A stretch of DNA of 63,956 nt, filler included, from Psammoneis japonica (taxonomy: Eukaryota), in the NCBI GenBank assembly GCA_008632985.1. It is 3 parts of 3 records of this genome, joined end to end, with 100 filler letters (N's around TTAATTAATTAA, not from the genome) between each part and the next. Parts side by side here need not be neighbours in the genome. Positions count along the whole stretch, not along the records: positions 1 to 26,671 come from QPGO01000419.1; 2 more parts are not named here. One strand, given 5' to 3'. Shown in pieces: positions 1 to 33,599 of the stretch; positions within the stretch are counted from its first letter, which is position 1; every line of letters begins with the position of its first letter. The notes under the pieces were generated by a model. That model worked only from the letters and a program-made list of their open reading frames with translations, made no database searches and was not told where the DNA came from. The translations under genes and the position numbers were made by a program.

Positions 1-1828
1 GCCCGATTCCAAAAAAAGCAGAAGCGATTCGCGCGATCGCAACTCCCAAAACTCGCAAGGAATTGCGACGCTTCATCGGTGTGATCAACTGCTGTCGAGA
101 CATGTGGCCTCGACGATCTCATGTTTAGCTCCTTTAGCCAAACTCACTTCTACCCAAGTAAAGTGGCAATGGACCGAAACAGAACAAAAAGCCTTCGAAA
201 ATATGAAGCGCATCATCTCCAAAGACATGCTGTTGTCATACCCGAATTTTAACATACCCTTTGAGATATGGCCGATGCTAGTAATTCTCAATTGGGGCGG
301 TTATTACTCAGAAAACCGACCAATTGCCTTCTACAGCCGCAAGCTGAATGGAGCGCAGACGCGTCATGCTACAACGGAAAAGAACTATTGTCCATAGTGG
401 AGACGTTAAAAGAGTTCCGCAATATACTGTTTGGCCAACAGATAAATATATATACGGATCACAAAAATCTCACACACAAAAATTTCACAACGGACANGAG
501 TCATGCGTTGGCGTCTAATGATAGAAGAATACAGTCCCAAAATAATATACCTTGAGGGCAAGGCAAATGTTGTCGCAGATGCGATTAGCCGACTTACTAT
601 GAAGAAAATAGAACCTATGGAAACCCTCAGCACAGAAGAGCTAGCTGAAAAGGTCCCACCAAAATCCTGCGACAATGTCTTTCCGTTAAATTACAAAGTT
701 CTTGATTATGAACAAAAACGGGACAAAGACATTCTCTCCCAATTGTCGAATAAGACGTTTCATACGAAGACTTTTCGTGGAGGCGAGCGAGACCGGTTGC
801 TCACATGTCATAAGGATAAAATTGTCGTCCCGAGGACGTTACAAAAGGCAGTGATAGATTGGTGTCATACGCACCTTCTTCACCCTGGCATAAATCGAAC
901 AGAAGAAACAATCTCACAACACCTGTGGTGGTCCACCTTGCGTGAAGACATACGAAAATACGTGTCGAGATGTGAGACGTGCCAAAAATTCAAAAAGAAA
1001 CACAAGAAATGTGGACATTTACCTCCTAAGTGCGCAGAATCCGCACCGTGGGAATGACCATGTGTGGACCTTATTGGGCCATACAAAATACGTCGTAAGG
1101 GAAAGAAAAAACCCCCAGTCCTGAAATGTTTGACCATGATCGATCCAGCAACCGGATGGTTTGAAGTTGTGGAAATCCCAAATGAGGAGTCCACAACTGC
1201 AGCTGGACTGCTAGAACGAACATGGTCAAGCAGACATCCTTGGCCATCGTTGGTCACATGTGACCGTGGAAGTGAGTTCATCGGACACCAATTTAGAGAA
1301 ATGGTGCAAGATGATCATGGCATTAAAGTCAAGCCCACAACTGCACAAAATCCACAAGCAAATGCAATTGTTGAATGCGTGCATCAAGCACTGGGGAACA
1401 TGCTCCGTACATTTGATTTGCAACATGCACCTCTGGACACTGAGGATCCTTTCGCTGGAACACTGTCAGCGGCAGCGTTTGCGGTGCGTTCTGCGCATCA
1501 CACCACTGCGCAAGCTACACCAGGACAACCAGTCTTCAACAGAGACATGACATTTAACGTCCAACATGTCGCAGACTGGAAATCAATCCAGCAGCGAAAA
1601 CAAGAAATCACAAATAAAAATGACGCTCGAGAGAATGCTCGACGCACTCCTTGCATGCACAGAGCAGGAGAAAAGACACTGCTCGAGAAAGACTCGCAAA
1701 AATTAGAACAGCCCTGTGTTGGACCGCATGCAACAACAACGGCACATGCCAATGGCACAGCACAGATCAAACGCGGTAACATCATTGACACTGTCAACAT
1801 TCGTCGAATGATGCCGTTTAACGACTGA
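1..1828 (+). mobile_element. Ty3/Gypsy LTR retrotransposon (family A), 3' part of pol: RT end, RNase H, integrase; degenerate
   Basis: Consecutive frameshifted ORFs carry RNase H motifs (ADASNSQLG, PIAFYSRKL, ELLSIVETLKEFRNIL, IYTDHKNL), the integrase HHCC region (HPG...CETCQ) and core (DLIGP, DRGSEF, NPQANAIVE). Domain order RT-RH-INT is Gypsy. Confidence 0.93.
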
Positions 1829-1854
1829 CTCTAATGTGCAATCAGGGAGGCAAA

Positions 1855-2234
1855 TGCAATGTGCGTTGTCATGCACGCATTACACATGTGTGTCTGTGTG
1901 TTAAACAAAAGTGTGTTTCAATCGTGTGTCAATCGTGGGTTCGTACAAAGTGCAGATCAGTCACACAGAAGTGATCGGATGTCGAGAATCGCAAATGCGA
2001 TCGTACGATGATGTTGACATCTCATGTGTCAATGTCAATCGCATCCGGACAATCTGTCGTCACGATCACATTCTCCGAAAGGCCTTTTGTCTGTGGGAGC
2101 AGTGCAAAAGGTTTGGGCCATTGAGAACCCGTTTGGAGAAACCCAAAATGATTGCGTAGAAACAATTCTCATAATTTTCACCTTTTTGAACTTCATTCTA
2201 CTTTCGTTTGCACTCGTTCTTCGAGCATGGTGCA
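1855..2234 (+). repeat. 3' LTR of Gypsy family A, TpA-depleted copy, preceded by purine tract AGGGAGGCAAA (1844-1854)
   Basis: Starts TGCAAT just after the integrase stop and PPT. Aligns over about 380 bp with the reverse complement of 54721-55099. Confidence 0.88.
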
Positions 2235-3529
2235 AAAGTCCTCCCATCCCTGCCAACTGCCTGTCCCTAGAATCAGATCACCGCAAGAAGTCGCACGAGC
2301 AAAGCGACGCCAGTCGCTGGCCTCGTAAAGACCGACCAGGGGAGATGACCTCATCACCCATTGATGACGCACCGGGAAATCACCCCCCGCATCTGCCACA
2401 TTGAACGCGTTCAAGTTGGCATTTTGGAAGCGAGCTGCTGTTGCTCATTCTTCCGAAGAGCTTTAGCAGCAAGCCGAACAGACAGTCTAAAAGCGCTCCC
2501 ACCTCTCCCTCCCTCTGGCCATGCCGTTCCAGCTTGGGAATGGAAAGGGACCAACTACGCTGGTAAAGTCCTCCCATCCCTGCCAATTGCCTGAAAATCA
2601 CTCGCCACCATGACGAGTGCCGCCGACGCGCCGTCGTGCAGCTCCACAGCCATTTCGTATTTTCCAATGCGGTGCCACCAACGTACTGCGTGACTCTTTT
2701 ATCTAAAATCACTAGCTTCAATGTTGTCACAGAATGCCACAACCATTTAAAGCAAGGCTTCGGAAAACGAATGGCAAATCTTCTGGGGTCAAACACAGTC
2801 ACACTCGATTGTGACCTCAAAACCCTTTGTTCGACCATTGAGTCATGTGCAGCTTGCAAGAATGAGATCTATACATGATGCATGGAAAGTTTTTGTTGAG
2901 CTGGGTTTTGCACCGGAAAATGTGCATTGTGTGTCTCTTGCTACACCCGGTCCATCGCGTTGAGAGGTTGTGACGCGATGTTGTGCTGCGCGGCATGCAA
3001 CACCGAAACGAATGAATTTACGACGCACTCCGTCCATTTTGAGCAGCGTCACCATGGCATTGGAGCAGTTCAAGACTCTGTCACTCACACAATCACTCCT
3101 CCGAACCCCAAGATTGATCCAGTGTGTCATCCCATGCGAAACAAGGAGAGCCCGGATCAACTCTTTTGAGTCAAATTAAATGACATCTCAGTTCATCAAA
3201 AGGTTCAAGATTCCGCATCCTGACCTTTGATGGATGTAAAGAGGATGACAAAGTTGCTCTAGTTTCAACTGTTCGGCCTGCTTGCTCACAGGAAGAATGG
3301 ACTGACGAAATGAAAGAAGCGCTCAAGAAACTCTTCAAGCGCAAATAAAGTCCGATTCCAATTTCAAGTTACAGTAAAGCTTCATAGGGGTCTTTCTGTC
3401 CAGGTGCAGGCAGTCCGCATCTTCACAGACAAGCCTGTTTTGCCGAGCCCCTCTCCGAGACAGTGTCCAAGTCATTGCGCCTTTCATGCGGGTCAGAAGT
3501 CACCCGACAAGGAATTTCGCTGCCCATCC

Positions 3530-4834
3530 TTGCAGCCAGTTCGACATTGTTCCAATGCACTCAATTGCTGTTCATCTACATTGTTCACATCACAACCTAA
3601 AACCGAGTGTCATGGAATGTACGCAACACTTGATTTGAATGTCGGAACAATTGGCACAAGCTCTGGGTCTCGCACTGGGATTGGACGCCGACGCACTTGA
3701 CCATTTTGTTTCAGAAGGATCCATTCCGCCTGCTCAAACTCACATCCAGTAGATCCACACAACCACATGATCCAGAACAAGATGCCAGTGGTGTCGATGC
3801 TCGCACGGATGCAGGATTCTGCACTTTGCTTCTTCAAGATCAAGTGGGAGGCTTGCAAGTCAATCTGCTTCTAAATGGAAACGACTGGATCAATGTTCCA
3901 CCCACTGGACCCGACATGGTGGTTTGCAACCTGGGCGAAGTTGCCGAGCTTGTGAGTGGCCGGCATCTCTTGGCCACACCACTCTGTGTTGTGATGTTGC
4001 CCTGTGACAAGGCACGTATATCCATTTCCCGTTTTTTTTTTACAATCCGATAAACGCTTTCAGTTTTTCGAAATCGGGCAAGTGGGGGACTGCGGTACTG
4101 AAACAGCGTAGAATTCTACGTATCGTACTTCGCCGTGTTGTAAATCGAAATCACGTGGTGAAAGCACGGTGAAACTGACAAGTGGCGGAGAACGTCCAAA
4201 TGCTAATTGGAAGGAAAGTAACGTTATCGAGCTTGTCCTAGACACATGTTATCCAATGTAAATAGAAACTTTCGTTGAGAAACTTGTTAAAACAAATGTT
4301 TTGGACAATTCCCAAGTTCACCACGGTGAAGCACGGGAAATCACTCGCCAAATTGCCGCGCAAATCGCTGGCAATTATCTAGCGATACTTTATAGAGCTA
4401 TAATCAACGAATAGCTTCCATTCCGACATCGAACTAGCACAACTTATTGTAAGATATGTCACAGCACAACTGTCATTTAGTCAGAAGCAGTTGTGGCTTT
4501 CCACCGTGCTTTCGTCGTGCCATCAATTTTATAACACGGTGAAGTATGTACGTAAATTCATACCAGGTTCTACTGCAGTCCCCCATTTGATCGACTGAAA
4601 GCGTTTATTCTATCGGCCGTTGTGATAAAACAACTCCGTGTCCATGATGACTTGTGGGAATGCTCCAGAGACAAACGTTGGAATCATCAAGCTGGAAACG
4701 TGATGCATTCTCATTATGGAAAGAACGCATTCAAGAGCCCTGCACGATCTCATCCACGAGTGTTTTCGGAGCATCACGCAGACTTGGAAGTGTTGGAGAA
4801 TGGCAGTGTTGTGAAACAAGAAGATGCAACATGA
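3530..4834 (+). pseudogene. 2-oxoglutarate/Fe(II) oxygenase (IPNS-like) pseudogene interrupted by a MITE
   Basis: Motifs RTDAGFCTLLLQDQVGGLQV, WINVPP, VVCNLGE, LATP, FFYNP on the left and YGKNAFKSPARSHPRVFSEHH on the right. The metal-binding HxD is degenerate (RTD). Start is approximate. Confidence 0.72.
4051..4607. mobile_element. MITE / foldback-like non-autonomous element (about 557 bp)
   Basis: Perfect terminal IR TAAACGCTTTCAGT...ACTGAAAGCGTTTA, plus matching subterminal blocks (GGGGGACTGCGGTA/TACTGCAGTCCCCC; GAAAGCACGGTG/CACCGTGCTTTC). Removing it restores the oxygenase frame (YNP-ILSAVVIK). Confidence 0.85.
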
Positions 4835-4881: not shown

Positions 4882-5917
4882 CTAGATTCGTAACTTTGGA
4901 TCCCCGACCATCGGCTTGAGCTTGGCTTGCCGCGACATTTGCGCGTTTAACCTGCCTCTCGATCCTACGTGTGCTGCCCCGGAGGAAGATCCGCTACCAT
5001 GCCTCACCGTTACCGAGTGCGTGCTCTTGCCAGGAATTGGAACAAGCTTAAACTTGTAAACTTTTGGTCCGTCGACACTTGGCTCATACGTGTAACCGGT
5101 GCATCGGTACAAGCCTTCATAATAGTATTCAGGCTTTCCATCTTCACCTGTGGATCGTCTCAATAAGCGGATCGGATCTCGAGTCGACACAGATGAAATG
5201 AGTGACGAATTGGCTACATTCTCCTCTTGATCTGTCACATGATGCTTGCCTTTTTACCTCCCGATCCAGTGTAAATGACCGATCCGTCGGCTTGACGATC
5301 ATTGTCGTCCACATATCCGCCAGACAAGCAAACCGCATAGCACGCCTCGTCCTTGACCGAGTCAATCCCAGAAGGAATCTGGGTGTGAATCCCCAGAATC
5401 GCGGCTTCACCGCGACCTTTCAACTTGATGCCGATTGGGACTCCCTCTATTTCCCCATGGCGACGACGAGGTGTCCATGTGTTTCGCAACTCCTTAAAGG
5501 CAACCATATCGGGTTTCTTCTGCTCAGCCTTCTCCAGTTGATTTAGTCTCTGGCGGAACTTTTGTAGTGCTTCGGCCGCACGACCCGTGCATTCAAGTGT
5601 ACCGTCCTGCTGCTGTTGCTGCTGCTCCTCCAAACGCTCTTGTTCTTCTCGGTATTTGTTAAACACTTGTTTCCACTTTTGTACAAGGCCTTGGCTTTGG
5701 ACCCAACAGTTGCGTGCGACTTTAACTTTCTAATCACAAAAACCACCTCGCTGTCCCTCAGCCATGGATACTCCACGTCAAGCTCGTCAAGCCTCTGCAG
5801 ACAGTCTTTAACAGATTCGACCACCGTCTCGTCGTTGATGGTATCTTGATTCTCAATTGCTTTTTCAAGACGTTCCTTTAGAATCTTGATGGTGGATTCT
5901 GTATTTGGTGATGACAT
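4882..5917 (-). CDS. SRA/YDG-domain protein with an N-terminal TFIIS-N-like helical domain
   Basis: Three frameshifted ORFs. SRA motifs HGEIEGVPIG, GRGEAAILGIH, SGID, AVCLSGGYVDDND, IYTGSGG, PIRLLR, YYYEGLYR. N-terminal LQRLDELDV...LRDSEVVFVIRKLKSH resembles TFIIS-N. Confidence 0.82.
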
Positions 5918-10345: not shown

Positions 10346-10619
10346 CCATTTTCCTTTTCAATAAAGTAATTGTTACCTTTATAGCATGGTAGATAAATGT
10401 GATGCCTACAGTATCGACATTACTCTGTTACTTTTCACCTTGCAAACTTTGCCTCTCGCGTGCCGTGCCATTGTACACTGACTTTTTCCGCGTTCACATT
10501 GTTTTCCATCAAACTTGACTTTGTTGACATTGCGATAGATTCTAGATCGATCCGAGAGAGGTGAGTGATCAAGCCAATGAGCATGTTGCACTCTTTGTGA
10601 AGAGGGCATCACACTGGCT

Positions 10620-13600
10620 AGACCTCACCGCATCGACACTCGCAACAAATGCAAGTGAAGACCCATCAGTGGCAAAAAATGTCACCCAGATCTATGGTCT
10701 CTAGTGGTGGGGAATGGCTCCTGCATTCAAATCACTGTTCACAACTGTCTGAGCCACAGATGATTTGTTGATCTCCCAAGCAATTGCACACTGAGTTGGC
10801 CACCAATTCTGCACCCAACTTTTTTCCAACAGGAGGTGAGAATTGGGGGCCCAGCATCTGTGCAATGCCCCAAAGGGCACCAAAGATGCTTGCATTGGCC
10901 AGCAGTGCAGATGACATGGTCTGTGGCAATCTTAAAACCAGGGCAAGTGCAGTTAGAACTCTGCTCCATGACCCACTTGCAGCTTCACACTGTGCCGGTG
11001 TCAACTCAGCAGCCACAGAACCGCTTTGTCACAGTGAGCTTTGGAATCCTCCAACTGCTCTCCTGCCATTTTCTGTTCAGCCTTGCTCTTCTCATGTTTG
11101 AAACCATCCGTGGGAAGCTTTTCATGTTGGTCTTCAACTTTTGCATGCTGTTTCACTCAGTTGTCATGCTCAAGACACCTTGTGTGTCTCTGGCGCTGAT
11201 CGATGCTCTCGAATTGTGAAGTGGCTGTCTTCATCCGGAGAATTTCAAGCAGCATCCGTGCACTTGTTCTACAGCTCAACTTGTGCACAGCACCAACCAA
11301 GTGCAGAATCAAGTGTGGCAAAAAATGCTGGGTGTGCCTCCTTGAATTCCAGCAAAATGCTTTCACCTTTGACTTTCTAAGCTGTTGCAAGAAATGCAAA
11401 ACCCACTCCTTCTCCATCTCCAGCAGCTTGGCAAAGCCTGTTTCCAATTGTGCTGGCTTGCCAGCCAGCAGGTCTAAATCCCCCACAATGAACTCAAGCC
11501 ATTTGATGCTCCAGTGAGAAATGCAACAGGGCCCCAGCAAAGCATGGGTCCTGCTCACTGAGAAGAAGAATCAAAAATGTGTTGGACTCATTGAAGCAGT
11601 GTCATTTGATCTTGACCAACTCCCAGCATCCAGCTTCAAGCTCAGACAAGACTTGCTCACTTCATTTCTTGAACCACTTTGTCCTTTGCTTTCAACAAAG
11701 ATGCAAAATTTTTGAGAACAAGTTCTCCTGTTTTCTTCCACAAAAGTGGCTCAAATTTGAAAAAGAAACCATGTGCTTCCATCATCTCAAATCCTGGAAC
11801 TTTTGACAAAAGACCATTTTGTGAGGGCAAAGCTTTTGCCGGCTCAAAACACAAGCCCATCTCTGACCCAAATTGCACCATGACCCAGATGCCAGGCCCA
11901 AACATCAACTCAGTGCAATGCTCCAATGCACGCCCTTGGCATGAATTGCCCACCAACTGCTTTGCCATTTCTTGTGAGACAATGAATGACAAAAAAGTTT
12001 CTTCCCTGCCACAGTCTGCATGACACAGCAAAAGGAGGTGCTTGCAAATTTGTTGGTTGACACACCATCAACGCTGCTGTCATTCCACACAACAGATTTC
12101 TTCTGCCACAAAGATCAGCCAGTGCTTTGTGTCCTTTCAGTCCATTGCAGAAAGACTGGATGAGCCAGCAAGAATGATCACAATTTTCTTTGTGGTTGTT
12201 TTGGCCCACATGGTCACCAAATGCAGCAAGCAACACCCACATCATGACCAGGTTTGTAATGTGAAAAGAATCATCCAAAAAAATCACCCGCCACGTAGCA
12301 CAATTTGCCCACCACAGAAGATTGAGAAGTGGCAGCACTGCCTTCTTAAAAATCTTGTGGGCAGTTTTGAAAGCATGTTGGGAGCATTGTCTGTGGCCAC
12401 CCTCTGTCACAGTGTTCAAATGCATTGGCAGTTCCAAGGCTCTCTGTTGGGGCAGCAACATGGCAGCTTTGGTGGCAGCAAGATTGGCGTGCAACACTTT
12501 GTTCCTCCAAAATGCTTGGAGTTGACATCACAGGAACAACATGGCATGCTGTTTCCATGCCAGTTCTTTGCTGTTACATTCTTCCTGAAATTGTCCTGCA
12601 GATGAAAAGTGCCAACCACATCTGGTTGTCACAGATGGTCTCAAAAGGTTGACAAAAACACAAACTCATCTTTCACATGGGATCTTCCAAGAAAGTGTGT
12701 GCTGCAAGGGATTGCAAGAGCCCACCAACTCAGATGAAGGAACTCATGGCAAAAATGAATGTGACAAATGACATGCACAGCAAAGTCTCAGATGCCCCAT
12801 GTTTTGCCTTGCAAGTGGGTGAAGTTTTGATGGAGCAAAACACTCTTGTCTCAACTGTGCCACTTCACATGATCCAGCAAGTCCACCAACTGCTCATTGT
12901 CCAATGATTTCAAAATTCAGCATTGAAGAATTTCTTCATGGACAACCTGGACATTCTGCCTTGATGTCTGCAACTCACAATTGCCCATCTCCATGTTGCA
13001 CTTTGTGATGGTGTCCTCTGATGATGGCTCAAAACCACACTTTGCACTGGCTCCAAATGCCAACTGCTCTGCAACATTTTCATTGATGTTGTCTGCAGGA
13101 ACACTTCACAAAAAGATGAAAGTTTAGAGAAGCTGAGGGAAATTGTCCAAATGTTTGAAAAAAACATCTGGGAGCTGCTTCTTCTTAAATCTTGACAAGG
13201 TGAATGCATTGGAGCCTTTTCTTGGAAAGGCAGGCAATGAAATCTCCCTGTCACACACATTGTGGCTTGTGGTCACAAATCAACACAATTGACAACTTGA
13301 TGGACTTGGGAAGTGTTTTGTTTGGGTTGCTCTCCTTCCCTTTTTCTTCTCAGCAAAGGATGTCTTGTGCAGCAAGGAAGCTTGCATTCTCCTGAGAATG
13401 CCAAATGCATTTTGTTAGACTCCCTGCAAAAGGAGAATGTGTGAGAGATTTTTGTGTCATTCTTGAACAGAGTTGAAAATGATTTCATTGATCATTTGCA
13501 TGAGGTCACCAGTGGAGTGTCTTGGCCCATTGAGCATGCCGTCAACTTTTTCACATGTCATCTGTCAGACAGTGAGATTGCTTCACAAAGAGAAGGAAGG

Positions 13601-16600
13601 ATTTCTTGTGCAACTTGGCCCCTTTTGTGGAAACACCTCAGTCTTGGTGCCAATGAAGAAATGAATCCTCTCAAAAGGATGAAAAAGGACACAAGAGACT
13701 TTTGTTTGGAGTTGATTTGAGTTGCTGCCTTGCCGCTGCCTCTGTTGCCTGCAAAAAGGATTGATGGAAAATTCTGAGGTTTCCAAGGCAAAGTCATGAC
13801 ACTGGAAGTGTGCAGTGTGTTTCTTTTGCATGTGCAGCAAAGGAATGCAAACCATCATCTTTTGGTCAACCCCCTCCCCCCATCATGACTGCAAAGAATG
13901 TCATGAATGCTTGACTTCCCTTTTGGACCTCTCTGCAGAACGCATGTCCACTCAGGCATGGGGACAGAATCCTGGCAATGTGCCAGAGGTCATGATGCCA
14001 CATGTTCTTTGCCAGCATGTCAGTGAGGAGCTCCACTGCAAACCTTGGTCTCTTGGCAAGTGTCCACCTTTCTTGAGAGGATCCATCATCAGTGATGACA
14101 CTTTTTCCTCAAAGATCTTCAAAGTCTTTCCAAAGATCACGTGCACCCCAGCAACTGGAAATTGGATTGCTCCACTGTGCAAATTCAATGACAATCTATC
14201 CTCTGCTGGTTCTGAGGATGTCAACCCATGAAACTTGCCCAAAGTCATTGTGTTGCTCAGGAATGGAGCATTCTGCATTCTTTGGCCCAAGTCTTCTTCT
14301 GTCAACCTGCTGTTTAAAATGAACAAATGTGTCATCATTGAAGTGCAGCTCAAGAGCAGAAAGCAGAAGGTCAATTTGGCCATGCTGGTGGAAGAGCTTC
14401 AGAATCATGCTGTCTGTGCTGCAACAAAAGGAGCATTTTGTTTGCATTGATTGGGCTGACAATGGTGGAGGAAGAGCCACCAGTTGGCGAGCTCATCACT
14501 GACAATGCAAGCAACAGGATTTAACTGCATTGTGGCAAAGGGACTGCTTTTGCTGGTGTTCTGGTCCCCACTAATTTGGAAGTTGTTTTTGTTCTGACAA
14601 CAGGCCTGGAGACATTTTTGATGAAAGAGGATGTTCAAATCCTGCCGAAAGACAAACTGGATTTGCGACATGGCCTTGGCAACATGGTGGCCTTCAAAAC
14701 ACACCCCTGTGGTGGGGGAGCTGTGTGTGTGTTCGTGATTGCACGCGCACGTTGAGTTTCAATGTTGATGTCCACATGCATGTGCACATTCCACAAGCAA
14801 AAATTCCTGTTCCACAGCTCCCCTAAAACTCTGACCACCAAAAACCAAGGGTGCAGAAACGCACTTTTTGGAAGACAGCGCGCACACCAAAACATCACGC
14901 GTTTCGACGACTCGACCATGACGACCTCCCGTTCTTCATCCCCCACACCACCTGATGTGTGCCCGCCTGCCGTTCCTGATGCAGCAGTCTCTCCCCATGT
15001 TGGCCGGTGCCATCAAACCTGCTGTTGTAACCCAAACACAGCAGATTTGCAATCCTGAAGTTTGGGCCCACTTTCATCGGATCCAAAATTGACCGTGGAC
15101 GACATTGCCACCATTTGTCATTGAGTGCCACAATCAAGCACAATGCAACAACAAGGCAAAACCATCCCACTCATGCTCTGACTGATGTGGATGCAAGCAG
15201 GCCTGGTGGTGGCAGAGCGAGGCGATTTTGCTTGGAACAACAAAGGCATGGGATCAACAAGCACCAATGCACTGGTCGATGCTCCTTGCATGGGCGTGGG
15301 CATGGCAGAGGAGCGTCTGTGATGGGAGGCACGGTGACAACTTTTCTCAGGATGATTGTTCCCAAGCAGAACATCCTCTGTCTGGAGGTGATTGAGGCTC
15401 ACCCAGAGCCCAGCGGAACCAATCGGAGCCAACAACAGGTGTCAAGATGAACTGCAGCAACATGTGAAGGAGGATGCAGCCAATGGAACACGGGGGCAGA
15501 GAAGGTGCCGGCATGCAAAGTGGCAGCACAGCTGTCAACATGGCACTGGTTTTGAAGGTCTAACAGTGACAAACACAGAAAGCATTTGCCAAAAGCACGT
15601 TGCTGCCTGCCTCCATTTTAGCAACCTACAAAAACAGCATGTTGTGCATCACATGTGGAATTCAAATGGCGAGAGTGGCCTCTCATGGAATTGCACATGA
15701 TGACCCAGTCCTGGAAAACAGAGCAGTGTCCAAGCCACATGCACCACTTGAAACCTTGCCAAGTCGCCTGCAAACAAATGCCAGTTTGCTGACCTCTCCA
15801 ACTTGAAACTAAAAACCATGAAAGCATGCCTGCCATCTAATTGTTGTCAGGTTTCTAATTTACAGAGAGCTGCACAATGTGTCTATACATTCTAAAGATT
15901 AGACTGCACTCAAGAGCTGACCAAGAGGCGCTGTTTATGTCCATCATGTGTCGTCCATCAGCAGGCCATGGTTGCGTGGGTTTCCTGGTCCGCCGTCATC
16001 CATTGTGCTCCTTCTAAAGCAAAAACAATGACAGCATCAACAGCACCTGTGGCAGCAAGGGTGGGGTTGACAGTGTCGAGCATGCCAGGGGGCCGAAACG
16101 CAGGTGCGGCGTTGGAATTCGTGACAGTGTCTGTGGGAGGCGGTGGGGCGAGAATGAAAGAAGTGTGAGTTGTTGGCATTTCATTGTGGACAACAACAGT
16201 GTCAACAGCACCTGCAGCAGCAAGGGCAGGAGCAACAGCATTGGGCATGCTGGGGGCCCGAAATGCAGGTGTGGCTTTGGAATTCGTGACAGCATCTGTG
16301 GGAGGCGGTGGAGCATGCAAACAACAGTGAGAGTTTGCAGCATCTTGTTTTGCATGTGTCACACCCACAAGAACTGGAATGATGACATCACCTGTTGTGT
16401 CAGTGTTGTTGGCAATGGCATCAGCAGGATCGGCATCCTGGGAAGGCGATGGGGAAGAACCACGAGGCATCATCATGGTCAAGTTGTCAAAACGCGTGTT
16501 TTTTGTGCGGAGAAAAGAGCTGCCAAAAGTGCACTTCCGCACCCTCGGTTTTTGGTGGTCAGAGTTTTAGTGGAGAATGTGGCTCAGGATTTTTCCTGCT

Positions 16601-17700
16601 GCTGTTAGCATTTGTGTACAAATTCATGAACAAATGTAAGAACATTTGCATGAAAATGTGATGAATGAGATGTAACTGCCACGCAACCATGACATCACCA
16701 CATTCTCCCCTGCCACAGGGGTGTTCAAAACAACAGGGAGGATGCCACGTGCCGCCCAAAAGAATTGATCCCTCAAAGAAACCTGCAGTGACTTGAGCAT
16801 TTGAGAGGGTGACTCATGCATGGCCATCCCACCACCCATTCCGATGGATTCTCCTCCACACAGCAGGTTCCTCATGGCAGGTTCCTGTCAGCACAACACA
16901 GACTTCAACATGGGCTGTTCTCCATGAACCTTTTGTGCCACCAATTTCATTCTGTGTTGGACCTGAGTGTTTAAAACATGATGCAGTCTTGGACAGTTGG
17001 TGGCACTGGGTGGAAAACCCCTGCATTTGGCACAATGCATGGCCAACACTGGGTTTCATTCTTGCCACCAACGATTTGAGCCCGTCTTGAGAAACTGACA
17101 CAGTGGCCAACTTGCACTGGCTCAGAGTCAAGAACTCTGTGATGTGTGCCATGTTCACTTGGCTCTCATTCAAACTCTCTTTTGGCTTTGTTGAGGATGA
17201 CCACGACACACGTTGCCCCCCCCCCCCTCCCGCTCCATCAGAGCAAATGACCCCAAAACCTGCTGCCTGCTGCTGTTGTCTGTGCTGCGGGTGCAGGGGT
17301 CACTGCAGATGAGCTGGGCCTTGATGGATTGATGCACAAGTGAAATAAAAACCAGATTGGAGCACTCAGGCTCTTGCTTGTGTCCTTGTGTGATCCACTC
17401 TTCTTGCTGAGTGGGTTCAATCCTTTGGCTTCCAGGTGGATGGCAGTCGCAGCTGCAGTGCGGACTCGCCCAATGCAGCAGTCTGTCTACTCCATTCCCT
17501 CTTGAGTGTCATTCTCTCATTTGATCCACAGCACTTTGTTTCTTGTTCATTGGACAATCACATCAAGCTTGTGGAGCTTTCAGCACAAGTTCTCTGTGTC
17601 TTGCTGGACTCTGGATTCCCTGGCAGTCCTGAGGCGTCAAGAACCCTGGCGACGAACCCATTGTAGAATTTCAGGTTGCTGGCAAGAACACTGCATCACA
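10620..17700. mobile_element. Large degenerate TpA- and CpG-depleted repeat block (unidentified TE relics)
   Basis: Near absence of TA and CG over about 7 kb, with an internal inverted-repeat pair and direct repeats. No intact domain could be recognised. Confidence 0.5.
14697..16727. repeat. Imperfect inverted repeat pair (about 14697-14945 and 16450-16727)
   Basis: CTAAAACTCTGACCACCAAAAACC(A/G)AGGGTGC...CACGCGTTT(C/T)GAC(G/A)ACT(C/T)GACCATGA and CACCCCTGTGG occur on + in the first arm and on - in the second. Confidence 0.75.
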
Positions 17701-18088: not shown

Positions 18089-21067
18089 ATGGTTCCAAAA
18101 GCGTTGCTCCTCCTGTTGTGCGTGAGCCCGTTGTTTTCTAAGGTTCATGGCGAAAGCGTAAGAGACGGCAACGGAGGTAACTGCGTCAACGTTACTTCCT
18201 GCCGACCTCGATGCGTCACTTTTCGACTTGACCGCACCAAAACCGACTGTGATAAAGCCGAGGGCGTCTTCGCGGAGCAATCTGAGCCCAATCCTTGGGA
18301 TATCCATGAGTTCCGCTCGTTGAATTGTGAATCTGCTGGCACTTGTTTTAACAGCAAGTGTGGTCAAGACTTGCTGGGTAATGTGACGCTGCGCATCAGC
18401 GAGGATGGAGACCTTGGGTCTCCGTTCGTCACGAACGTCGAGTTGAAGGACACTCAAGAAAGATTCACGTTTTGTTCGGTATACCCCTGTCCAAATGAAG
18501 AGTGTGCATTGCCAGAGCAAATGGTATGTTGCCTTGCGATACTTATATTGATTTTCTCCTTATCACAAAAAAAAAACTGAAACCGTCCAATTTGCATACT
18601 ACCTTAGGGATCGGAGTTACGACTCGAAATTCACGAAGGAAGTAGCGGGCAGCCAAGTGACGAATATCTGCTTGCCTTGGTAGGTTTCGAACCTCTTTTA
18701 TGTACTTCTCTGGAATGCATCCGAGAAAAGCTTTTCTCACACACATTGGAAACTCGCATATAGGAGCTCTCCCTAACGGCGTCTTTTGCCGGATCTGCGT
18801 TTCACGAAGCCGTAGACAACAGGTATGGACCGTTGTATCTGGAATGGATGGATGATCCCACTGGATGTCGGCATGGCGCATTATCGGATTTTGCGCCAAT
18901 TGCACCGCCTGCTGAGCCCTTGGTTGCTACGAATTTGACTGAGGTTGAAGCCGGCTTGTACTGCGAAGGTGATACGTACGATCTATCGCCACTCCCACAA
19001 GCTATGACACCGAGCGCAGCACCGAGTCTTGCACCCACGACGACTGCAACATGGACTTCCGAAGAACTCGACCAAATTGAGGCCCTACAAGCCTTTTATA
19101 ACTCGACCCACATGGGGCATCACCAATCCAAGCGCTTTCATAACTGGTTCACGGTTGACGATTACTGTGATTTCACAGGTATCGTCTGCGATGCAAATGG
19201 TTTTGTAACGAGCATTGATCTTACTAACAAGAGGCTTTCAGGAATCCTTCCGACATCGTCCTGGGAGCTTTTGAGGCAAACTCCAAACTCTCAAGCTTGT
19301 CGGAAACCTGATTGAAGGCAGCATCCCTTCCCAGCTCGCACAGTTGAGTCATCTTACTCATTTGGAATTGGCAGTAAACAACCTCTCCGGCCCAATTCCC
19401 GACGCTCTCTCGTCCCTGAACCAGATTCGCCGCCTCATGCTGCAGTACAACAAGCTTAACGGTACCATCCCAGAGTCTGTCTGCGATTTGACGAAGCTCC
19501 TTGCATTTGACATTTCGGGAAACAAAGCCATGCATGGCGAGATTCCTTCATGCCTTGGTACACTTCCTTTGGAAGTTCTCCGAGTCGAGGACGTTGGTCT
19601 CGTGGGTGAAGTCCCGCCGGCATTATGTGCTGTGCGCAACATCAATGGACTCGAACCGAATCGCTATGGGTGCGAGGGTATTGCTTGTCCAGCTGGATAC
19701 TACGAACCTATTTTGGGGAGAAAGAACAATGCCAATAGCCAGTGCCTCACATGTGTCGCGCCCTCCAATGTAATTGGGTCGACGAAATGCATGCTTTTGG
19801 AAGGCAACGATGTCGTAACACAAGCTCCGTCGAGCAGCCCGGCACCAAGCGGTGTTCCATCATTCAGTGCTTCTCCGACCATGAGCTTTTCACCAAGCGC
19901 TGTTCCATCTGCGAGTCTTTACCAACCATCAGCATCATGCCTACTGTGGGTTCTTCAAACACGCCTTCTGGAGTTGAGACTCTTTCTTCAGCGCCAAGCG
20001 CTAGTAAGGAAGGTTATTCAGCGAATCCATCTGCGGCTCCCAGCCTGCATCCGTCTTCACCTCCCACGTCAGTCCCAACAATATTTCGACAGCCCCCTTG
20101 ACACCCGCTCCATCCCAAGCAGACACTCCAAGCCTGACCAAAGCCAATTCCACAAAACTTCATGAGGTATCTGTAGACTTGATGCTCCTCTTTGCGAACA
20201 TTACAACGAAGCTGACTGACTCAGCCGACAAGGCAGCTTTTAACCATGCTACCAAGACCTTTTTGAACCATCAGCTGCCGGTGGAGGTACACGTTATTCA
20301 CGATGTTCTTATTGTTTCGCAGTTTCTGCACGAGCCAGAGAGCGAAAGTGATGGAATTGTGCACTTTACTTTCCGACACCTATCTCAAGCGGCTCTACAC
20401 ATCAAGATCAGAGTCCAGGGAGAAACGAGCGATACTGACAACGCGTTCAAGATGGCGATTGAGCAGTCCCTGAAAGAACAGTATGGCTCATACATACACA
20501 AGCTTTCCAAAGACATTGATTCCTTCGCAACGCCGGTTGGTAGCCAAGGTGGTGGAAAGGACAACATTAATTGGGCACTGCTTGTTGTAGCTGTAGTCTT
20601 GTCTGTCGTGGCAGTTGCAACGCTACTGGTGGTTCGCCAACTTCACGGCAGAGACCGCTTTTCAGCAGAGGGGCAAAACGCAGGAGCCCACTGGTCGAAA
20701 ACGAAAAATGTACGTCTTGAATCACCACAACGAAGGCATACAATGCCGCTTGCTCAGCAGTAATATCCTCACAAGCAGTTTTCATTGAACTTTTCTTTCA
20801 CAGAAGCGACATTTGTTTAGTTTTGGTGGAAGAGGAAAAGGTCGTCCACCGGTTGAAGGCGGCTCCTTGTCTGACGAGAGTAGCGCGGGTTGGAGATCAG
20901 GCGAAGGGTCAGAGGAAGGTGAATTTGTCAATCCGGTCCATGACAGTGAAAGCATTGAGTCAGCCCAAGAGTGGACCATTGACCCGCTGGACCAAATGAC
21001 AGAGTACGATGGTGACAACACGTCAAGAACCCCCAGCACCACGGAACAATCCATTGCTGTTGTATGA
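18089..21067 (+). CDS. Leucine-rich-repeat receptor-like type I membrane protein
   Basis: Signal peptide MVPKALLLLLCVSPLFSKVHG; LRRNT (ALQAFYNST...NW...YCDFTGIVC); LRRs (LELAVNNLSGPIP, LMLQYNKLNGTIP); PSxxPS linker; TM helix WALLVVAVVLSVVAVATLLVV. Probable introns at about 18524 and 20760-20803; frameshifts present. Confidence 0.8.
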
Positions 21068-21279
21068 GCAAGCGGCGTCGTGGTTTTCCTAATTCTTCTC
21101 GGTAAACATTACAATGAAGAAGACATTGATTCTCTTTTTCCTCCCAAGAAATGACGCATAAATGCACACATAACTCTTGTTCGAGTCCCACCTTAGAAGA
21201 CGTAGTAGATCCCCATAAGAACACTTTGCCGCTGTTTCTATAACATGTGAGACTGCAAAAGGTTCAGCAATGACCATCG

Positions 21280-23830
21280 CATTACGAGCACCAAGCATTC
21301 TGCAAAAGTTCCACGACGCACCCTTTTCTTTCCAACAACGGTGGCGAGCAACGAGCTACGACAAAAGGCAGGCATGGCATGCACACAAGAGAAACTGGTG
21401 ATCTTCCAACTTCCAACTTCCAATTGCCATCGCGCTGCTGAGACAGGCGGCCGGGCAGCCAGAACATGAAGTGGGGTGGTTGTTGCAGAGCAACAATCGT
21501 TCTCACACCACAACATCACCACTTGCTGGGGTTGCAGCACATGTCAGTGGCAGCCCTGGAATGAGCTTGTCTTCTTTGAGGATGGTTGAATCTGTCAAGT
21601 TAACAACAACACAGGCAGGGTGCTTGCATGGGCCATCCAGACCATCTGGTCCAAGTTTGTGATCACAAATGACATCCCAATGTTTTTCCCACAATGAAGT
21701 TGACAGGCAGCATGACATGAGCAGTGACAGCCAGGGCATCAATGGTGGGCAGACTGACATTGATTGGCACATGACCTGTGTTGCTGTTGGGAGATTGGCG
21801 CACAATGTTGATGTGAGCAGCTGGTGGTTTGTTCAGCTGCTGGAGGCATTTCATCATTGTGATTGGTGTGGTCTGCTTCCAAGCAGGCATGATGTGGAGT
21901 GCATCTCATTCAAGTGCCACTTGCTCAGCTGATGGCAGGGCACTCAGTTGGCACCACAAGAGAATGTCAGCGGCTTTGCAGTTCATGGCATCATTGCACA
22001 TTTGCAGAATTGTGCCACAATGCTCAAGGTCACTGCCTCATCTCATTTGCTCTTCAAGAACAATGGCAAGGCTGTGAACAGGAGCATCAGCAAAAAACAA
22101 CAGTTTGAGAAAGTTTTGAAATGCAATCAGACCACATGCACGTGCTGGCTTGACTTTCTTTGGAGCCTCTGAGTCAAATGTTGATTTTGTTGTTGCAACA
22201 GAAGGAATCTGTCCAAGGCTGCCACAGAAAGCAAAAGCTGGGACACCACCACATGGATGATTGCCTGGAGTTGAAGGTGCCACAGGAGTTGCCTTTTTTG
22301 CTCTGCCATTGATGGCATTGATGTCAGGGGGTCAACACCATCAGCCAGAGGAGCTTGTGTCTCCTTTTGAGTTGACAGCCACACAAAGTTGGAAAGACCA
22401 GTCATGGAATCCTTGTTTGTCAAAAAGGCTTTGGCGTTCTGTGCAGATCTTGAGCTTCAGTTGGATGGGGGTGGGCAAACTTTCTTGCCAACTGGAATTT
22501 TGAAAGTGTGCAGATTGGTGGAGCCAATGATGATGATGGCTGTGGTGCTGGTGGGAGTGGCACCAAGATCACATTCAATGGCACAGGACAATGGCCTCTT
22601 GGGCAATGCTTTGCACAGTCTTGATGCAAAAGGTCTTCCCTGTGCCAGGGTTTTTTGGCACTTTGAGCTGGAGAGACTGATGAGTGTCATCCCCCAATGC
22701 TTCTGTCCTTTTCTCTGGGTTGAGCAAGTTCTGCCAGTGCTTGCTGCAGTTGGATCCCCAGGCATTGCCCATTTGTTGCTGCAATGTTGCAGATGAAATG
22801 CTCTTGGAAAGGCAAGATGCAATCATGCTGGGTTTTGCATGCATGTCAACAAAATCTCCATGAGAAAAAACAAAATTTTTGGCTTTGACTGGCTGGCTGT
22901 GGTTGGCTCAGGTTTGGGTCACTCAGTGTGTTGTGCAATCCTTGCATTTTCTGACATGCATGAGAGATGAGAGTTCCAGTCATCGACAGAGCCTGGCAGG
23001 GCTGAAAAACTGCACACACAGTCCAGCCAAGAGTCTGAGAAGCTTCCAAAACTCAGCACCTCATTCTGTGTCTCAGCTCTTCTGGGTTGCTTGTGCACCA
23101 TAATGACAATGTTGGCTCAACTTCTCTGGACTCTGGGTGAAAGCTCAATGGCAACAGGGAGCTTCCAGGTTCCAAATGGCTTGTGGTGCCACCCAAAAAC
23201 AACATCCTGCCATTGTCTGGCAACTCTGAATGCCCTTTTTGTGTGGCAACAAGTGGTGCATCCCCCCCCCCCCCCCTGCACCTGCAGGAGGGATCCAATG
23301 CAATCACTGGATCTCTCCCCACAGCAGGAATCACCCTTGACCCACAATTGACTTTCAGAAAAGTGTTCTCTCATTGGGTCTTTTCGCTGTCATTCCTGAG
23401 AGTCGTGTGCTTGTGTGTGCTTTTCCACCAAAAATGGGAATGGCAGCAGAACATTGAAGTTGCCCATTGAATGTACAATGTCTGTTGACATTGACACTCA
23501 CTTGAGAACCAAACAGCATCATTCTCATTTTGGGTGACATGTGGATTTGCGTGCAAAATTGAGAAGAGGGCTCCAATCTTCTTCCGATCCCATGCACATG
23601 AAGACACCTTTTCCATCTGGAGTGATTCCCACTGTGGGGAGAGATCCATGATCACCACATGATTGATCACAGGGCATTGAACTCTGCTCTTTTCCCACTC
23701 TCCAACCTGTCATTTTGCATTTGGCGGGCTGGGCTGGTGTGGACTGGGGTCACCTGGTTCTTCAGAAGTGTGCAGGGCTGCTGGGCAGAGCTGGGTTGAG
23801 CAACTCTTGCTGGGGAGTGCTTCAGTGCCT
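21280..23830 (-). mobile_element. Degenerate PIF1-like helicase, probably a Helitron-type relic, TpA-depleted
   Basis: Walker A NPGTGKTF (about 22640), ATPTSTTAIIIIGSTNLHTFKIPV (motif Ia-like), CGGVPAFAFCGSLGQIPSV (motif III-like) and C-terminal HVML.VNF...HPACVVV, in correct PIF1 order across frames. Boundaries are approximate. Confidence 0.68.
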
Positions 23831-26671: not shown

Positions 26672-26771
26672 NNNNNNNNNNNNNNNNNNNNNNNNNNNNN
26701 NNNNNNNNNNNNNNNTTAATTAATTAANNNNNNNNNNNNNNNNNNNNNNNNNNNNNNNNNNNNNNNNNNNN
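26672..26771. other. Artificial contig linker (N-run + TTAATTAATTAA + N-run)
   Basis: A 12-mer with stops in all six frames, embedded in Ns; an identical copy lies at 53198-53297. Confidence 0.95.
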
Positions 26772-29700
26772 CTCATGCGCCATTTAGGCAATTGTTGTCA
26801 CCCCAGCTCATGCTGTTGTCCAGCTCATTTCCGTGACTGTGCATGTTTGAGCAATTGCTCAGCTCAAACTCTTGGTTGGACAAAAAGCCAAGACTGGAAC
26901 TCTTGGTTGTGACCATCAAATGTTGCTTGGTGTTGTGTTCTTGCTCATGTCCATTGTGATTGTGCACATGCACGTGTTTGAGCAGTTTTGTCACATGGTG
27001 CTGCTTGCCTGCCTGCCTGCTGGCCTGCCTGCATCATGGCCGACCACAAGCAAAAAACAGGTCTGTCCTCTTCCAACCAGTCTGTCCTCTTGCAAGAGCA
27101 AACTTTGTAAACCCACTCTAAGAGTGGCTTCCCATTGTTTCACATGCAAAACCCACCTGCTAAAATGGTCAGAAGGTCAACAGAGATCTTTGTGAAAACA
27201 GCGGCATAAAAGAGTGTTGCATCATGGCACAATCAGGGGCCAATGATGGAACATCACCATTTTCTGTAAAAAATCCATGGTGTGAGAATTTACAGAGATT
27301 TTTCTGGGATCAGTTTGATCATCAATTGTCACCATTGTTGTGTGTTTTTAATGTTGTCCATTTCAAATTCAAAATTGCATCTCTGAAAGACCACCCTCTT
27401 GCTCACTGCAACCACCACATCAAGCCCTCCACAGTGTTGTGTCCTTGTTGTTCATCATGGCATCAAAGCAACTGCCTCATCTGGCCCACCACAGCGCATC
27501 CTCTTTGATTGTCGCATCAACAAAAGACTCTGATGATCAAAACAAAAGCAGCCTGCACCCATGATCTGGTTGCCTGGCAAGCTCCTTCAAAAAAAGCTAC
27601 AATGAAGGTTGTCAAGACTGCAAAAGCAAAACCTGCCACATGGATTCATTCCAGGATTGGCACTCAGCCACAACTTCAAAAAGGATGACGTGTGCAATGC
27701 ACTCAAGAAATAAAAACAGGTGGCTGCCAATGCAAGTGAGTTGCACACCATGCCGGTGCTGCCACATCACAAACTCCTTCACCAGTCATCACCCAATCAA
27801 CTTCTGTAAAACATGCCAAGGGAGGCAGACCCAAAAGAGCCACAGAAAAAGCAGCCACATAAAAGCAAGCAAACACCAGTGCAGCACATGTGCACGCAAC
27901 TGAAGACCTCCTCAGGAGACATCACGAGTCCTCAAAAAAACTTCCCCTGGGCACTCTAGACCAAATTGTTGCCCAAGCAAAACAAAAGCATTTGTTGGAT
28001 GATGAAGTCACACTGTCCAAACACACAACAAACAAACAAACAAACAAACAAGCACTCCAAAATGAGTCAAACCCGCAAGGTCTCCATTCACAGTGGCTCC
28101 ACTGAAACCCACACCAGTCAAGCACTTGATGGTGTTGCAGCTGTGTCAAGTCACTGTTGAAACAGAAAAAGTTTCTTGAAGCTGCCAACTTCCTCATCAA
28201 AGGATCCGAGATGGAGAAAGAAGTGGTCAAATGGAGCAGGAAAACTGTGGCTGGGGGAACCATCCAATGAAGACAATCCATTGGTCAAGCTGGGATCCAA
28301 GTGCTGCCAGGGCTTCATGAAATGGACAAGGATGAATTGGCAACAAAACAAAATCAACTTGTACAAAGGTGCCAAAAGGCAGAGGACAGTTTGGTTTTTT
28401 ACTTGCAGCATGCATGCCTGCCTGTCAAGAGATTTCGGCATGTGGGAAGAATGAAAGAGGTGGCCGCCGGAGGCGGCCCAGAAGAATAAACTGAAAAGGA
28501 GAAAGGAAAAGAGAGAGAGGAAAAGAAAGGAAAAAGGAGAAAAACAAGAGAAGACGTTGTGGGGCTGTCAACTTGCGGCCCTTGGCTGGGCTTCTGCCCG
28601 CAAAGCAGCTTGTCTGTGACTTGAGGTGCTGTGGTTTTATGCGCTTGGCAGCAAAGCTCCCACAGCATGCTGGAGAACTGCAGAGTTGTGCCAGTCTGTG
28701 GCACAGCTTGACAGCGGCATCTTTTGTGAGGAGCGCTTGCTGCCAGCCCATCATGGCTTTTTGGGCAGCTTGTTTTCCAAGCCTTGCCCCACCAGCTTGG
28801 TGGCCACTGCCACGGATCTGTGTCTTCTTTGTTCTCCAAAATTCAGTGCACACTTTGGCGGGTTTGGCCCCAGCGCTGTGTCCAAACAATTCTCTGAAGT
28901 TTCCAAGTGAGAAAATGCAGTGTCGTCCTCTTCAAAAGATCTTCACAAAGATCCCTGGCAACAAGCACTGGCCTTCCCCACCCATGCTGTCAGAAGTGCC
29001 TGCCTTGACAAATTCACAGCATCTCTCCCAAAGCATCTGTGGATGCTGTGCCCAAATTTTGGCCTCATGCGTCACAAAATCTTGAGAGAATTTGCGAGAT
29101 TCACCCCATCATGTGCCGCCACCTTTGGATTTCCAGTGCAGCCATGGCTTCTGCAGCAGGCTGTTAACAAACATGCAAAGCAAGTTCCCACTGGGACCTC
29201 AAATTGACCTGCAGCCTTCTTCATTCCGGCTGCACCCCTGCTTGAATTCTGGGTGGCCAGCTGAGCAAAACCTGGCTCTGTCTGTGTTTCTCAGTTCATG
29301 TTTCTGGCTTTGTCACATGCAGTGCAAAGTGCCCTCAGGAAAATGCTTGTGGTTGTGCTTGCCCAATGCTGTCCCATCAGCCAGTGCCTTGTGGCGCAGC
29401 CCAATGCTTTGCTTGCCAGCTCTCCACTGCAAGCTCCTTGTGGCTGGTCTGGTGTCTTCAAGAAGCAAACCACACCCCATTTTTGCCCAAAGAGGGGGGG
29501 AAATCAGACCGATGCACATGCCTGAAAGACACCCTGTGTCATCAGGAGGTTCCACGATGAAAACGAGTGAGACGAATGAACAACACCACATCAGCTGCAA
29601 CGTGTAAAGTGGGAGCGAGATTTTGCGAGCGGTTTTCTGTTGTCTTGGTTGTTGCGAGTGTTGCGCGAAGCCTTGTTGATGTCGAATCTACGCCACAACA

Positions 29701-30420
29701 CACTGACTTTGTACGCCACAAAACTTCAAAAATTTGTTGCTTTTGTGCTGGGTCTACGCCACTGGGCGCATGTAGAATCTTACACAAAAATCACGTACGC
29801 CACTGTGGTACAAAATTTGTGTACACCCTGAACCATTCTACGCCACCAGTGACGTAGGCTCTGGCATGTTTTTTACACTTCTGACTTGAATTTTTCCGTG
29901 CCTGTGACCTGTCTGCCTTGCCTGCCCACCTGAGCCCTGCCCCCAGTGTTCCTGTGCTCTCCACTGGCAGTGGCTCTGGCAGAGCAGCCACCAGAGCAGA
30001 GCCAGGGCCCTGCTGTGCAGCATTGCAGGCTGCAGGGCTGGGCCCTCCAGCTGCTGCCCCCTCCCCCCCCCCAGAGTGCACTTGCCCCCTCCCTGCTGCC
30101 TCAGAGGCGGGCCCTGGCATGGCTCCTGTCTCCAGGTTTTCCTGCCTCAGGAGTGGCTGTGGTTGTTGTGCTGCTGCTGGTGGTGGTTGCTGTGGCAGTT
30201 GTGCTAGATGGACGGGCATCGTGCTGGCACTTTGGGCATTTGTGGGGCACATTGTGTGTTTTTGCCCCTGGCTGCTGAGCGGCTCTTCGATTTCATTGAA
30301 AAGGCATCTGTGGCAGAAAATGAAAGGGGTGGGGTTTTCCCATGAGTGAAGCAGTGGTGGAAGGTGTCCTGTGCCTGGTGATGGCATTTAAACTGTCTCT
30401 TGGGCTTGCTGCAAGCTCTT
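26772..30420. mobile_element. TpA-depleted repeat block, including a possible pogo/Tc5-like transposase relic at about 27890-28450
   Basis: TA nearly absent. Fragments LDQIVAQAKQKH...LSKHT and LGSKCCQGFMK loosely resemble DNA-transposase N-terminal HTH regions; this assignment is weak. Confidence 0.4.
29689..29846 (+). repeat. Array of five TACGCCAC motifs
   Basis: Exact 8-mers at 29689, 29712, 29755, 29796 and 29839. Confidence 0.85.
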
Positions 30421-33560: not shown

Positions 33561-33599
33561 CCCACCACACACAGACCACCAAGGTCTGCATGGAACAGG

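Follow-up and report, generated by a model that had tools for sequence, protein, structure and literature searches.

To our knowledge, targeted hypermutation of mobile DNA was known until 2026 either as C>T change, through repeat-induced point mutation (RIP) or APOBEC, or as A>I editing at the level of RNA. Fungal RIP converts C:G to T:A at CpA, makes TpA and creates stop codons. A dead copy of a Ty3/Gypsy long terminal repeat (LTR) retrotransposon, hereafter element A, in a 63,956-nucleotide stretch of the genome of the diatom Psammoneis japonica (assembly GCA_008632985.1; the whole stretch is called the window) carries damage in the opposite direction. TpA has been changed to CpA or TpG; whichever strand is read, this amounts to an A:T>G:C transition at 5'-TA-3'. 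The best explanation, to which a probability of about three in four may be given, is that element A was hit after its integration by tract-wise, TpA-specific hypermutation. RIP and the process seen in the window are alike in that tract-wise, dinucleotide-specific transitions ruin repeated or mobile DNA, spare genes and can leak past the repeat. However, the window process destroys TpA (observed/expected 0.03-0.3), accumulates CpA/TpG (1.5-1.9) and removes stop codons.

The closest described case is that of the chlorarachniophyte Bigelowiella natans, in which 230 of 231 mutations found in two viral inserts of mutation-accumulation lines were A>G or T>C, all of them on TpA (Mettrop et al., bioRxiv 10.64898/2026.01.13.699255, 2026). 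According to the main text of this preprint, the targets, a giant-virus insert and a virophage insert, are single-copy, the depletion is modest with a rho TpA of 0.45, the de novo rate is about 1000-fold above background, and an ADAT2-like DNA adenine deaminase is proposed (bioRxiv 10.64898/2026.01.13.699255). RIP is tied to duplication, whereas the B. natans target as described there is single-copy. As far as the main text allows comparison, B. natans and the window are alike in that the changes are almost exclusively A>G/T>C on TpA, are regional and run against the usual GC>AT bias, and in that the long-term signature of low TpA and high CpA plus TpG is enriched in reverse-transcriptase-bearing sequences. 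Consistently, the spectrum, the TpA restriction and, within 64 kb, the regionality of the B. natans type are all found in the window. The two cases differ in their targets, which are viral inserts in B. natans and a high-copy Gypsy family together with multi-kilobase saturated tracts in the window, and the window shows an apparent TAT>TAC>TAG>TAA preference. The words 'LTR', 'Gypsy', 'retrotransposon', 'CpG' and 'trinucleotide' do not occur in the main text of the preprint, so that these subjects and sequence context wider than TpA appear to be left aside there; its supplements may differ. Relative to that main text, the LTR-retrotransposon target, the saturated multi-kilobase tracts, the uncoupling from CpG, the extended context and the other lineage are new. 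The preprint is the only report of TpA-only hypermutation found in the literature searches made.

Element A was identified by the following features.

Positions 1-1828, plus strand: 3' part of the decayed Ty3/Gypsy pol of element A (Pfam domain matches and similarity to intact polyproteins).
Positions 3-125, plus strand: end of the reverse transcriptase.
Positions ~170-495, plus strand: RNase H-like domain (Pfam RT_RNaseH_2/RT_RNaseH).
Positions ~827-997, plus strand: integrase zinc domain (Pfam Integrase_H2C2).
Positions ~1091-1354, plus strand: integrase core (Pfam rve).
Positions 123, 125, 271, 293, 311 and 377, plus strand: one-base differences (indels) from most copies of the family (family-contig comparison).
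Position 497, plus strand: extra single N (family-contig comparison).
Positions 1055-1057, plus strand: TGA, the sole in-frame stop of the 461-codon integrase frame; most copies have C at 1055.
Positions 1843-1854, plus strand: putative polypurine tract, purine-rich, assigned by its position directly upstream of the LTR only.
Positions 1855-2234, plus strand: 3' LTR of element A, 380 bp, TG...CA, 89% identical to the reverse complement of 54721-55099.

The order of reverse transcriptase, RNase H and integrase, with integrase last, as seen by Pfam and tblastn, is that of Ty3/Gypsy (Metaviridae-type) elements. The 5' part is cut off by the start of the window and the 5' LTR lies outside it; full-length relatives carry RVT_1 upstream. 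Between the pol of element A and 120 intact polyproteins, each of about 1000-1100 amino acids, the identity is 48-55%, and neither a relative above 58% identity nor an intact copy of the same family was found by a representative search and a near-length protein search. Coding is spread over three frames, with at least five frame breaks in 123-497 and with frame switches seen in tblastn. At codon 1055 the relatives have Arg or Lys, and the TGA arose there from CGA by C>T at CpG and not through the TpA process. With its frame breaks, this TGA and 63 of 332 conserved residues changed, element A has lost its coding capacity. The family exists in very many copies: at a likeness of at least 80%, it is matched by 2346 contigs from a single public run, and the copies among these contigs differ at 875 places, 702 of which are transitions in all four directions.

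Tyr is the sole amino acid whose codons (TAY) always contain TpA. Six frame pieces of the window were aligned to the 120 intact relatives, and the nine motifs in which an earlier note on this DNA had read lost Tyr residues are all present in their frames. Tyr is found in all 120 relatives at H365 (TRHATTEK), C863 (DWCHTH), H1235 (SRHPWP) and H1316 (DDHGIK), in 111 and 119 at C90 and C93 (INCCRDMW), in 103 at C1715 (PCVGPH, a confirmed lost Tyr), in 96 at C1010 (KKCGHLP; Phe in 20) and in 80 at H1496 (SAHHTT; Phe in 36). Seven of the nine motifs therefore hold outright as losses of Tyr, and two readings are ambiguous: C1259 in VTCDRG, where 67 relatives have Phe and 44 Tyr, and the final His of PCVGPH, H1727, where 53 have Tyr and 46 His. 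Among the Tyr residues that had been called intact, Y332 (FYSRKL) and Y1082 (GPYK) are Tyr in 117 and 119 of the 120 relatives, and Y451 (IYTDHK) does not belong with them, His being found there in 91 relatives and Tyr in 22. The end of pol is free of Tyr as had been claimed, none occurring in the 247 codons after codon 1082, and metagenome relatives (40 of 80 loci) carry a median of 11 Tyr in the segment that corresponds to 1058-1828, versus 1 in the window.

The loss of Tyr is far beyond chance. Of the 24 columns with Tyr in at least half of the relatives, 6 are still Tyr in the window, 7 are His, 5 are Cys and 2 are Phe, while Ile, Pro, Ser and Leu take up one column each. The window keeps Tyr at only 5 of the 18 columns at least 80% conserved, whereas a leave-one-out analysis of the 120 relatives gave a minimum of 0.71 and a median of 0.94 for conserved Tyr kept. 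His or Cys at the flagged sites was also looked for in the intact relatives. Since they carry Tyr there, mostly in 96-120 of 120, and not His or Cys, the direction TpA>CpA/TpG stands, and since TAY always contains TpA, Tyr has been wiped out to His and Cys.

That TAY>CAY and TAY>TGY are the two outcomes at TpA, as the earlier note had proposed, is borne out, and the effect is wider than Tyr. At the 332 columns at least 80% conserved, 63 of which differ between the window and the relatives, Tyr (5/18), Val (6/14) and Ile (17/26) are poorly retained, and no residue has been lost among Ala (17/17), Phe (14/14), Cys (5/5) and Ser (6/6). A>G and T>C account for 30 of the 43 unambiguous single-nucleotide changes at these columns (T>C 16, A>G 14, G>A 6, C>T 3, transversions 4). 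Over the 429 columns at least 60% conserved, 24 of 25 T>C changes have A next (ATA>ACA, GTA>GCA, CTA>CCA and TAY>CAY), 11 of 17 A>G changes have T before, and 6 of 17 G>A and C>T changes are at CpG. In agreement with this, the Thr, Ala and Pro codons that replace Ile, Val and Leu end in A in 17 of 18 cases versus 20 of 62 for retained Thr, Ala and Pro (Fisher p 3.7e-6), and changes with the TpA signature number 21 in the window versus a median of 0 and a maximum of 3 in the 120 relatives when each is left out in turn. CpG decay is a separate and smaller component, seen as CGA>TGA at 1055, Arg>Cys at 1376 and Arg>Gln at 1347.

Comparison with other copies of the family gives the same direction at the nucleotide level. 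Most copies in the public-run contigs have T at 365, 1059 and 1316 and A at 1716, and among the 40 best-supported differences between the window and the 2346 contigs, 36 are TA or CG versus CA/TG. A further comparator is provided by a second A-type copy, A2.

Positions 54721-55099, minus strand: LTR of A2, TpA kept (TA observed/expected ~0.5-0.85), an unmutated comparator.

At the 29 TA sites of this LTR, element A has TA at 7, CA at 8, TG at 13 and another dinucleotide at 1, and no site with TA in the LTR of element A and CA/TG in that of A2 was found. A frame of 256 codons stays open despite heavy damage to the protein, because the process removes TAA and TAG and cannot make stops.

The damage is unevenly distributed along element A and beyond it.

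Positions 1-125, no strand assigned: TpA-free patch at the window start, 0 TA in 125 bp, holding the Tyr>Cys sites of INCCRDMW.
Positions 126-1096, no strand assigned: lightly hit island with near-normal TpA, 55 TA in 971 bp (5.7 per 100 bp).
Positions 1097-4016, no strand assigned: partly TpA-depleted 2.9-kb tract over the integrase core, the LTR and 1.8 kb of flank, 46 TA in 2920 bp.
Positions 3634-4050, plus strand: dead 2OG-Fe(II) oxygenase-like open reading frame (ORF) inside the depleted tract (Pfam PF03171, E 1.7e-12).

The patch at the window start has A>G at 81, 91 and 94 and T>C at 19, and other copies have TA at 47 and 74. The TA count falls from 55 in 126-1096 to 18 in 1097-2234 (p 4e-7), and conserved Tyr columns are kept at 6 of 12 in 126-1096 versus 0 of 10 beyond codon 1082 (p 0.015). 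At the 12 polarisable best-supported sites of 126-1096, the window is the mutated partner at 4 and the unmutated one at 8, whereas beyond 1097 it has CA/TG where the copies have TA at 9 of 9 sites (contrast with the island, p 0.005). The tract beginning at 1097 crosses the LTR end at 2234 into a flanking dead gene; its TA density stays at 1.6 per 100 bp from 1097-2234 to 2235-4016, and only from 4017 does the density rise, to 5.1 per 100 bp. The pattern is thus a plateau with sharp edges at 1097 and 4017 and not a gradient: of the local tracts or gradients that had been envisaged before, the tracts hold and the gradient does not, and clustering along the element is confirmed by the splits in both TA and Tyr. 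In the dead gene, alignment to 6jyv_A places Arg and Leu at the positions of two His residues that are presumed, from the motif, to be iron ligands.

The process acted after integration, because the tract crosses the LTR end at equal TA density and because an LTR pair and a tandem duplicate elsewhere in the window have diverged by the same changes.

Positions 55100-61619, minus strand: Gypsy element of family B, distantly related, with normal TpA, adjoining the A2 LTR; its 488-bp LTRs are 96.5% identical.
Positions 46771-47934 and 47937-49097: direct tandem duplication, 1164 bp, 97.8% identical.

The LTR pair of element B has 14 differences, of which 6 are TA-type and 4 CG-type. The tandem duplicate has 23 differences, all in its first 540 bp, of which 8 are TA-type and 8 CG-type, and TA is kept in the first copy where the second has CA/TG, as if a tract edge lay near 47000. 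That such young duplicates differ mostly at TA and CG is at most an indirect sign of de novo mutation.

A wider survey was made over this one 64-kb window, which consists of three contigs joined, so that adjacency across the joins may not be real.

Positions 26672-26771 and 53198-53297: artificial contig joins (44 N, a 12-base six-frame-stop linker, 44 N).
Positions 10501-17500, 21501-23500, 27001-30000, 33001-43000 and 47001-50500: multi-kilobase tracts almost without TpA, 0-3 TA per 500 bp versus ~30 expected.

In the saturated tracts the observed/expected ratio of TpA is 0.03-0.08, and CpA and TpG stand at 1.5-1.9 times expectation. The tracts hold 158 TA in 27,920 bp versus 1236 TA in 28,675 bp of genes and young elements. 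A sharp edge is seen within a single contig, where the bin 21001-21500 has 15 TA and the next bin 1. Ordinary TpA is found in the host genes (SRA-domain, FAA-hydrolase/SDR, LRR, YaaA, carnitine acyltransferase, trypsin and beta-propeller). It is also found in an AT-rich (GC ~0.36) non-coding stretch at 43501-46500, which is the one clear spared non-genic region. CpG is nearly absent from the TpA-free stretches 10501-14500, 21501-23500, 27001-29500 and 37501-40500 and near normal in the likewise TpA-free 33001-37500, 40501-42500 and 47001-50500, and therefore the losses of TpA and of CpG appear to be independent. Having lost TAA and TAG, the tracts contain many long ORFs without stops, on one strand as on the other. 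These ORFs are false, and hypermutated elements escape domain-based repeat annotation.

The survival of TA in the tracts relative to normal regions depends on its neighbours, being 0/74 for ATAT, 0.02 for ATAC, 0.11 for GTAC, 0.19 for CTAG and 0.40 for TTAA. This suggests an extended preference in which the 3' neighbour of the target adenine, if adenine is the target, ranks as T > C > G > A, and TAY seems to be the preferred extended context. The same trend is seen in the small LTR sample, and the Tyr codons retained in the window are all TAC.

These observations show that a TpA-specific process strikes bounded tracts of a few kilobases in non-genic DNA, acting on both strands and in places to saturation. 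It converts TAY into His and Cys codons and ATA, GTA and CTA into Thr, Ala and Pro codons, and removes TAA and TAG. This process would probably be an enzymatic genome defence targeted against silenced non-genic DNA, like that reported in B. natans. For its chemistry, the preferred proposal is that an ADAT/TadA-like deaminase working on DNA deaminates adenine where T precedes it, which has somewhat less than an even chance of being right.

Several observations weigh against hypermutation that is targeted and enzymatic. Element A and the adjoining dead gene fit a targeting of foreign or mobile DNA, but the large tracts have no recognisable origin. Outside element A they gave no Pfam match and contain no recognisable transposon coding sequence, and tblastn searches with eight full-length relatives and seven window ORFs (three from B, three from a Copia-type fragment and one from A2) found nothing in the saturated tracts. 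A processive single-strand enzyme would leave strand-coordinated runs, and the runs for which the earlier note had proposed a test are weak in the LTR (8 runs of CA/TG outcomes versus 12.3 expected, z -1.87, CA blocks alternating with TG blocks) and do not appear elsewhere: pol shows no excess (17 versus 16.1 expected), and over whole tracts the runs and heterogeneity tests of CA versus TG do not set the tracts clearly apart from normal regions. That T>C outnumbers A>G in 1097-1828 is due for the most part to a bias of detection, NTA>NTG being synonymous. The edge at 1097 may be an assembly chimera of two copies, a doubt founded on the draft state of the assembly and on the N and six one-base indels in 123-497. 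Finally, most of the intergenic space consists of such tracts, as would also be expected if an untargeted bias acted on all unselected DNA. TpA would in that case be unstable genome-wide, with TpA>CpA/TpG as the main neutral mutation of the organism, depletion would reflect age and the lack of selection, and the 1097 edge would mark a chimera or a gene conversion between an old and a young copy. Depleted tracts do fill nearly all of the space between host genes, and in the younger elements (B, A2 and the Copia fragment) the effect is slight, although what few differences they show are of the TA and CG types already; the linkers of the draft assembly, with the N and indels in 123-497, also leave room for a chimera. 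However, an AT-rich non-coding stretch of 3 kb keeps normal TA, sharp edges lie within single contigs, the plateau of 1097-4016 ignores the element boundary, and TpA observed/expected ratios of 0.03-0.08 would demand an extreme rate under a genome-wide bias. The process in B. natans is, according to the main text of the preprint, region-restricted and episodic (bioRxiv 10.64898/2026.01.13.699255). Untargeted instability is considered improbable.

Since TpA is self-complementary, A>G after T and T>C before A are indistinguishable in sequence, and there is therefore a variant of tract-wise hypermutation in which the thymine of TpA is the modified base. Thymine can mispair once it is oxidised, and in some protists the T of TpA is a modified base. 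A TET/JBP-type oxygenase might act on silenced chromatin and produce, for example, 5-hydroxymethyl- or 5-formyluracil, which would mispair with G and yield T>C, and the CpG decay that accompanies TpA loss in some tracts suggests heavily modified chromatin. This variant appears unlikely, though less so than untargeted instability: CpG is kept at 33-37.5 kb and 47-50.5 kb despite the loss of TpA, and the only published proposal, as given in the main text of the preprint, is an A-deaminase (bioRxiv 10.64898/2026.01.13.699255). Deamination of 5-methylcytosine at CpG resembles the window process in acting on a self-complementary pyrimidine-purine step and in ending in CpA/TpG, but it cannot change TAY codons, and CpG and TpA losses are uncoupled between tracts. 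Retroelements elsewhere are known targets of editing, and ADAR prefers U 5' of the edited A. Editing of the RNA or cDNA by an ADAR-like A-to-I or an APOBEC-like activity, with integration of the mutated copy afterwards, would agree with the many copies of family A that share TG where the window has CA, and ADAR/APOBEC3 and the window process are alike as deaminase-type hypermutation of retroelements. ADAR/APOBEC3, however, act before integration on RNA or nascent cDNA and on one strand, whereas in the window both strands and the flank are affected after integration. Both T>C and A>G are found on the sense strand, the tract extends 1.8 kb past the LTR end into the flank, LTR pairs and the tandem duplicate have diverged by the same changes after insertion, and the window changes are private at 9 of 9 sites beyond 1097. 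Pre-integration editing is thus largely refuted and is given very little weight. A sequencing or assembly artefact, such as base-calling errors at modified TA sites, might be suggested by the homopolymer-type one-base indels in 123-497 of this draft assembly, but it is hardly credible. Both states occur at many sites in the 2346 public-run contigs, although that run may be the source of the window itself; a strand-specific miscall would not yield a clean CA or TG consensus, and unrelated sequences (L039, L055, P0382 and P0312) show the same loss. The Illumina mutation-accumulation data of B. natans are, by the account in the main text of the preprint, true mutations (bioRxiv 10.64898/2026.01.13.699255).

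The signature of TpA-specific hypermutation is found outside the window as well. Two of 80 metagenome loci of related Gypsy elements, L039 and L055, carry it. L039:177-935 has a TA observed/expected ratio of 0.06, a CpG ratio of 0 and 1 Tyr in 253 codons, with three Tyr>His, two Tyr>Cys and two Ile>Met changes, and L055:553-1319 has a TA ratio of 0.19. In addition, 2 of 120 protein fragments lack most of their Tyr, P0382 having 0.3% (~1/318) and P0312 1.3% (~4/297). As judged from these sequences, this indicates that the process would occur in other populations or species. Taken with the unrelated metagenome contigs, a high-copy LTR retrotransposon as target in a diatom suggests a wider, perhaps ancient defence. 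There is the possibility, at rather less than even odds, that diatoms and chlorarachniophytes share a 'reverse-RIP' defence. In such a defence an activity on DNA, the likeliest being that of an adenine deaminase that prefers 5'-TA(Y), would be directed to silenced chromatin and would erase TpA from retrotransposons, viral inserts and dead genes in kilobase-scale tracts, to saturation and independently of CpG methylation decay. If this were true, it would do much to shape the intergenic composition of marine algae and to give rise to their spurious stop-free ORFs, and its footprints would already be visible in environmental metagenomes. The polarised events, the extended preference and the sharp edges can guide the search for the enzyme and for the targeting signal.

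The remaining features of the window are as follows.

Positions 53299-54690, minus strand: gag-protease of A2, cut by the contig join at 53198-53297 (tblastn with P0030, residues 48-470, E 1e-48).
Positions 61474-63954, minus strand: Copia-type fragment with near-normal TpA (RVT_2 and a retroviral SH3-like domain).
Positions 4885-5729, minus strand: SAD/SRA-domain gene, apparently normal, adjoining the 2OG-Fe(II) oxygenase-like ORF.

Element B was tried as a negative control for the substitution spectrum and set aside, being too divergent from the alignment and having ORFs that overlap out of frame, and leave-one-out analysis was used instead; at columns at least 80% conserved its spectrum is flat, with 3 T>C changes and ~51 transversions. 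Internal short repeats are present at 45118-45577, within the spared stretch 43501-46500. The SAD/SRA domain binds methylated DNA. The closest Atlas cluster to the trypsin ORF consists mainly of Bacillariophyta sequences (score 0.96), in line with a diatom host, whereas the SDR/FAA-hydrolase ORF matched bacterial SDR clusters only and was uninformative on the host lineage. The host ORFs are long and intron-poor.

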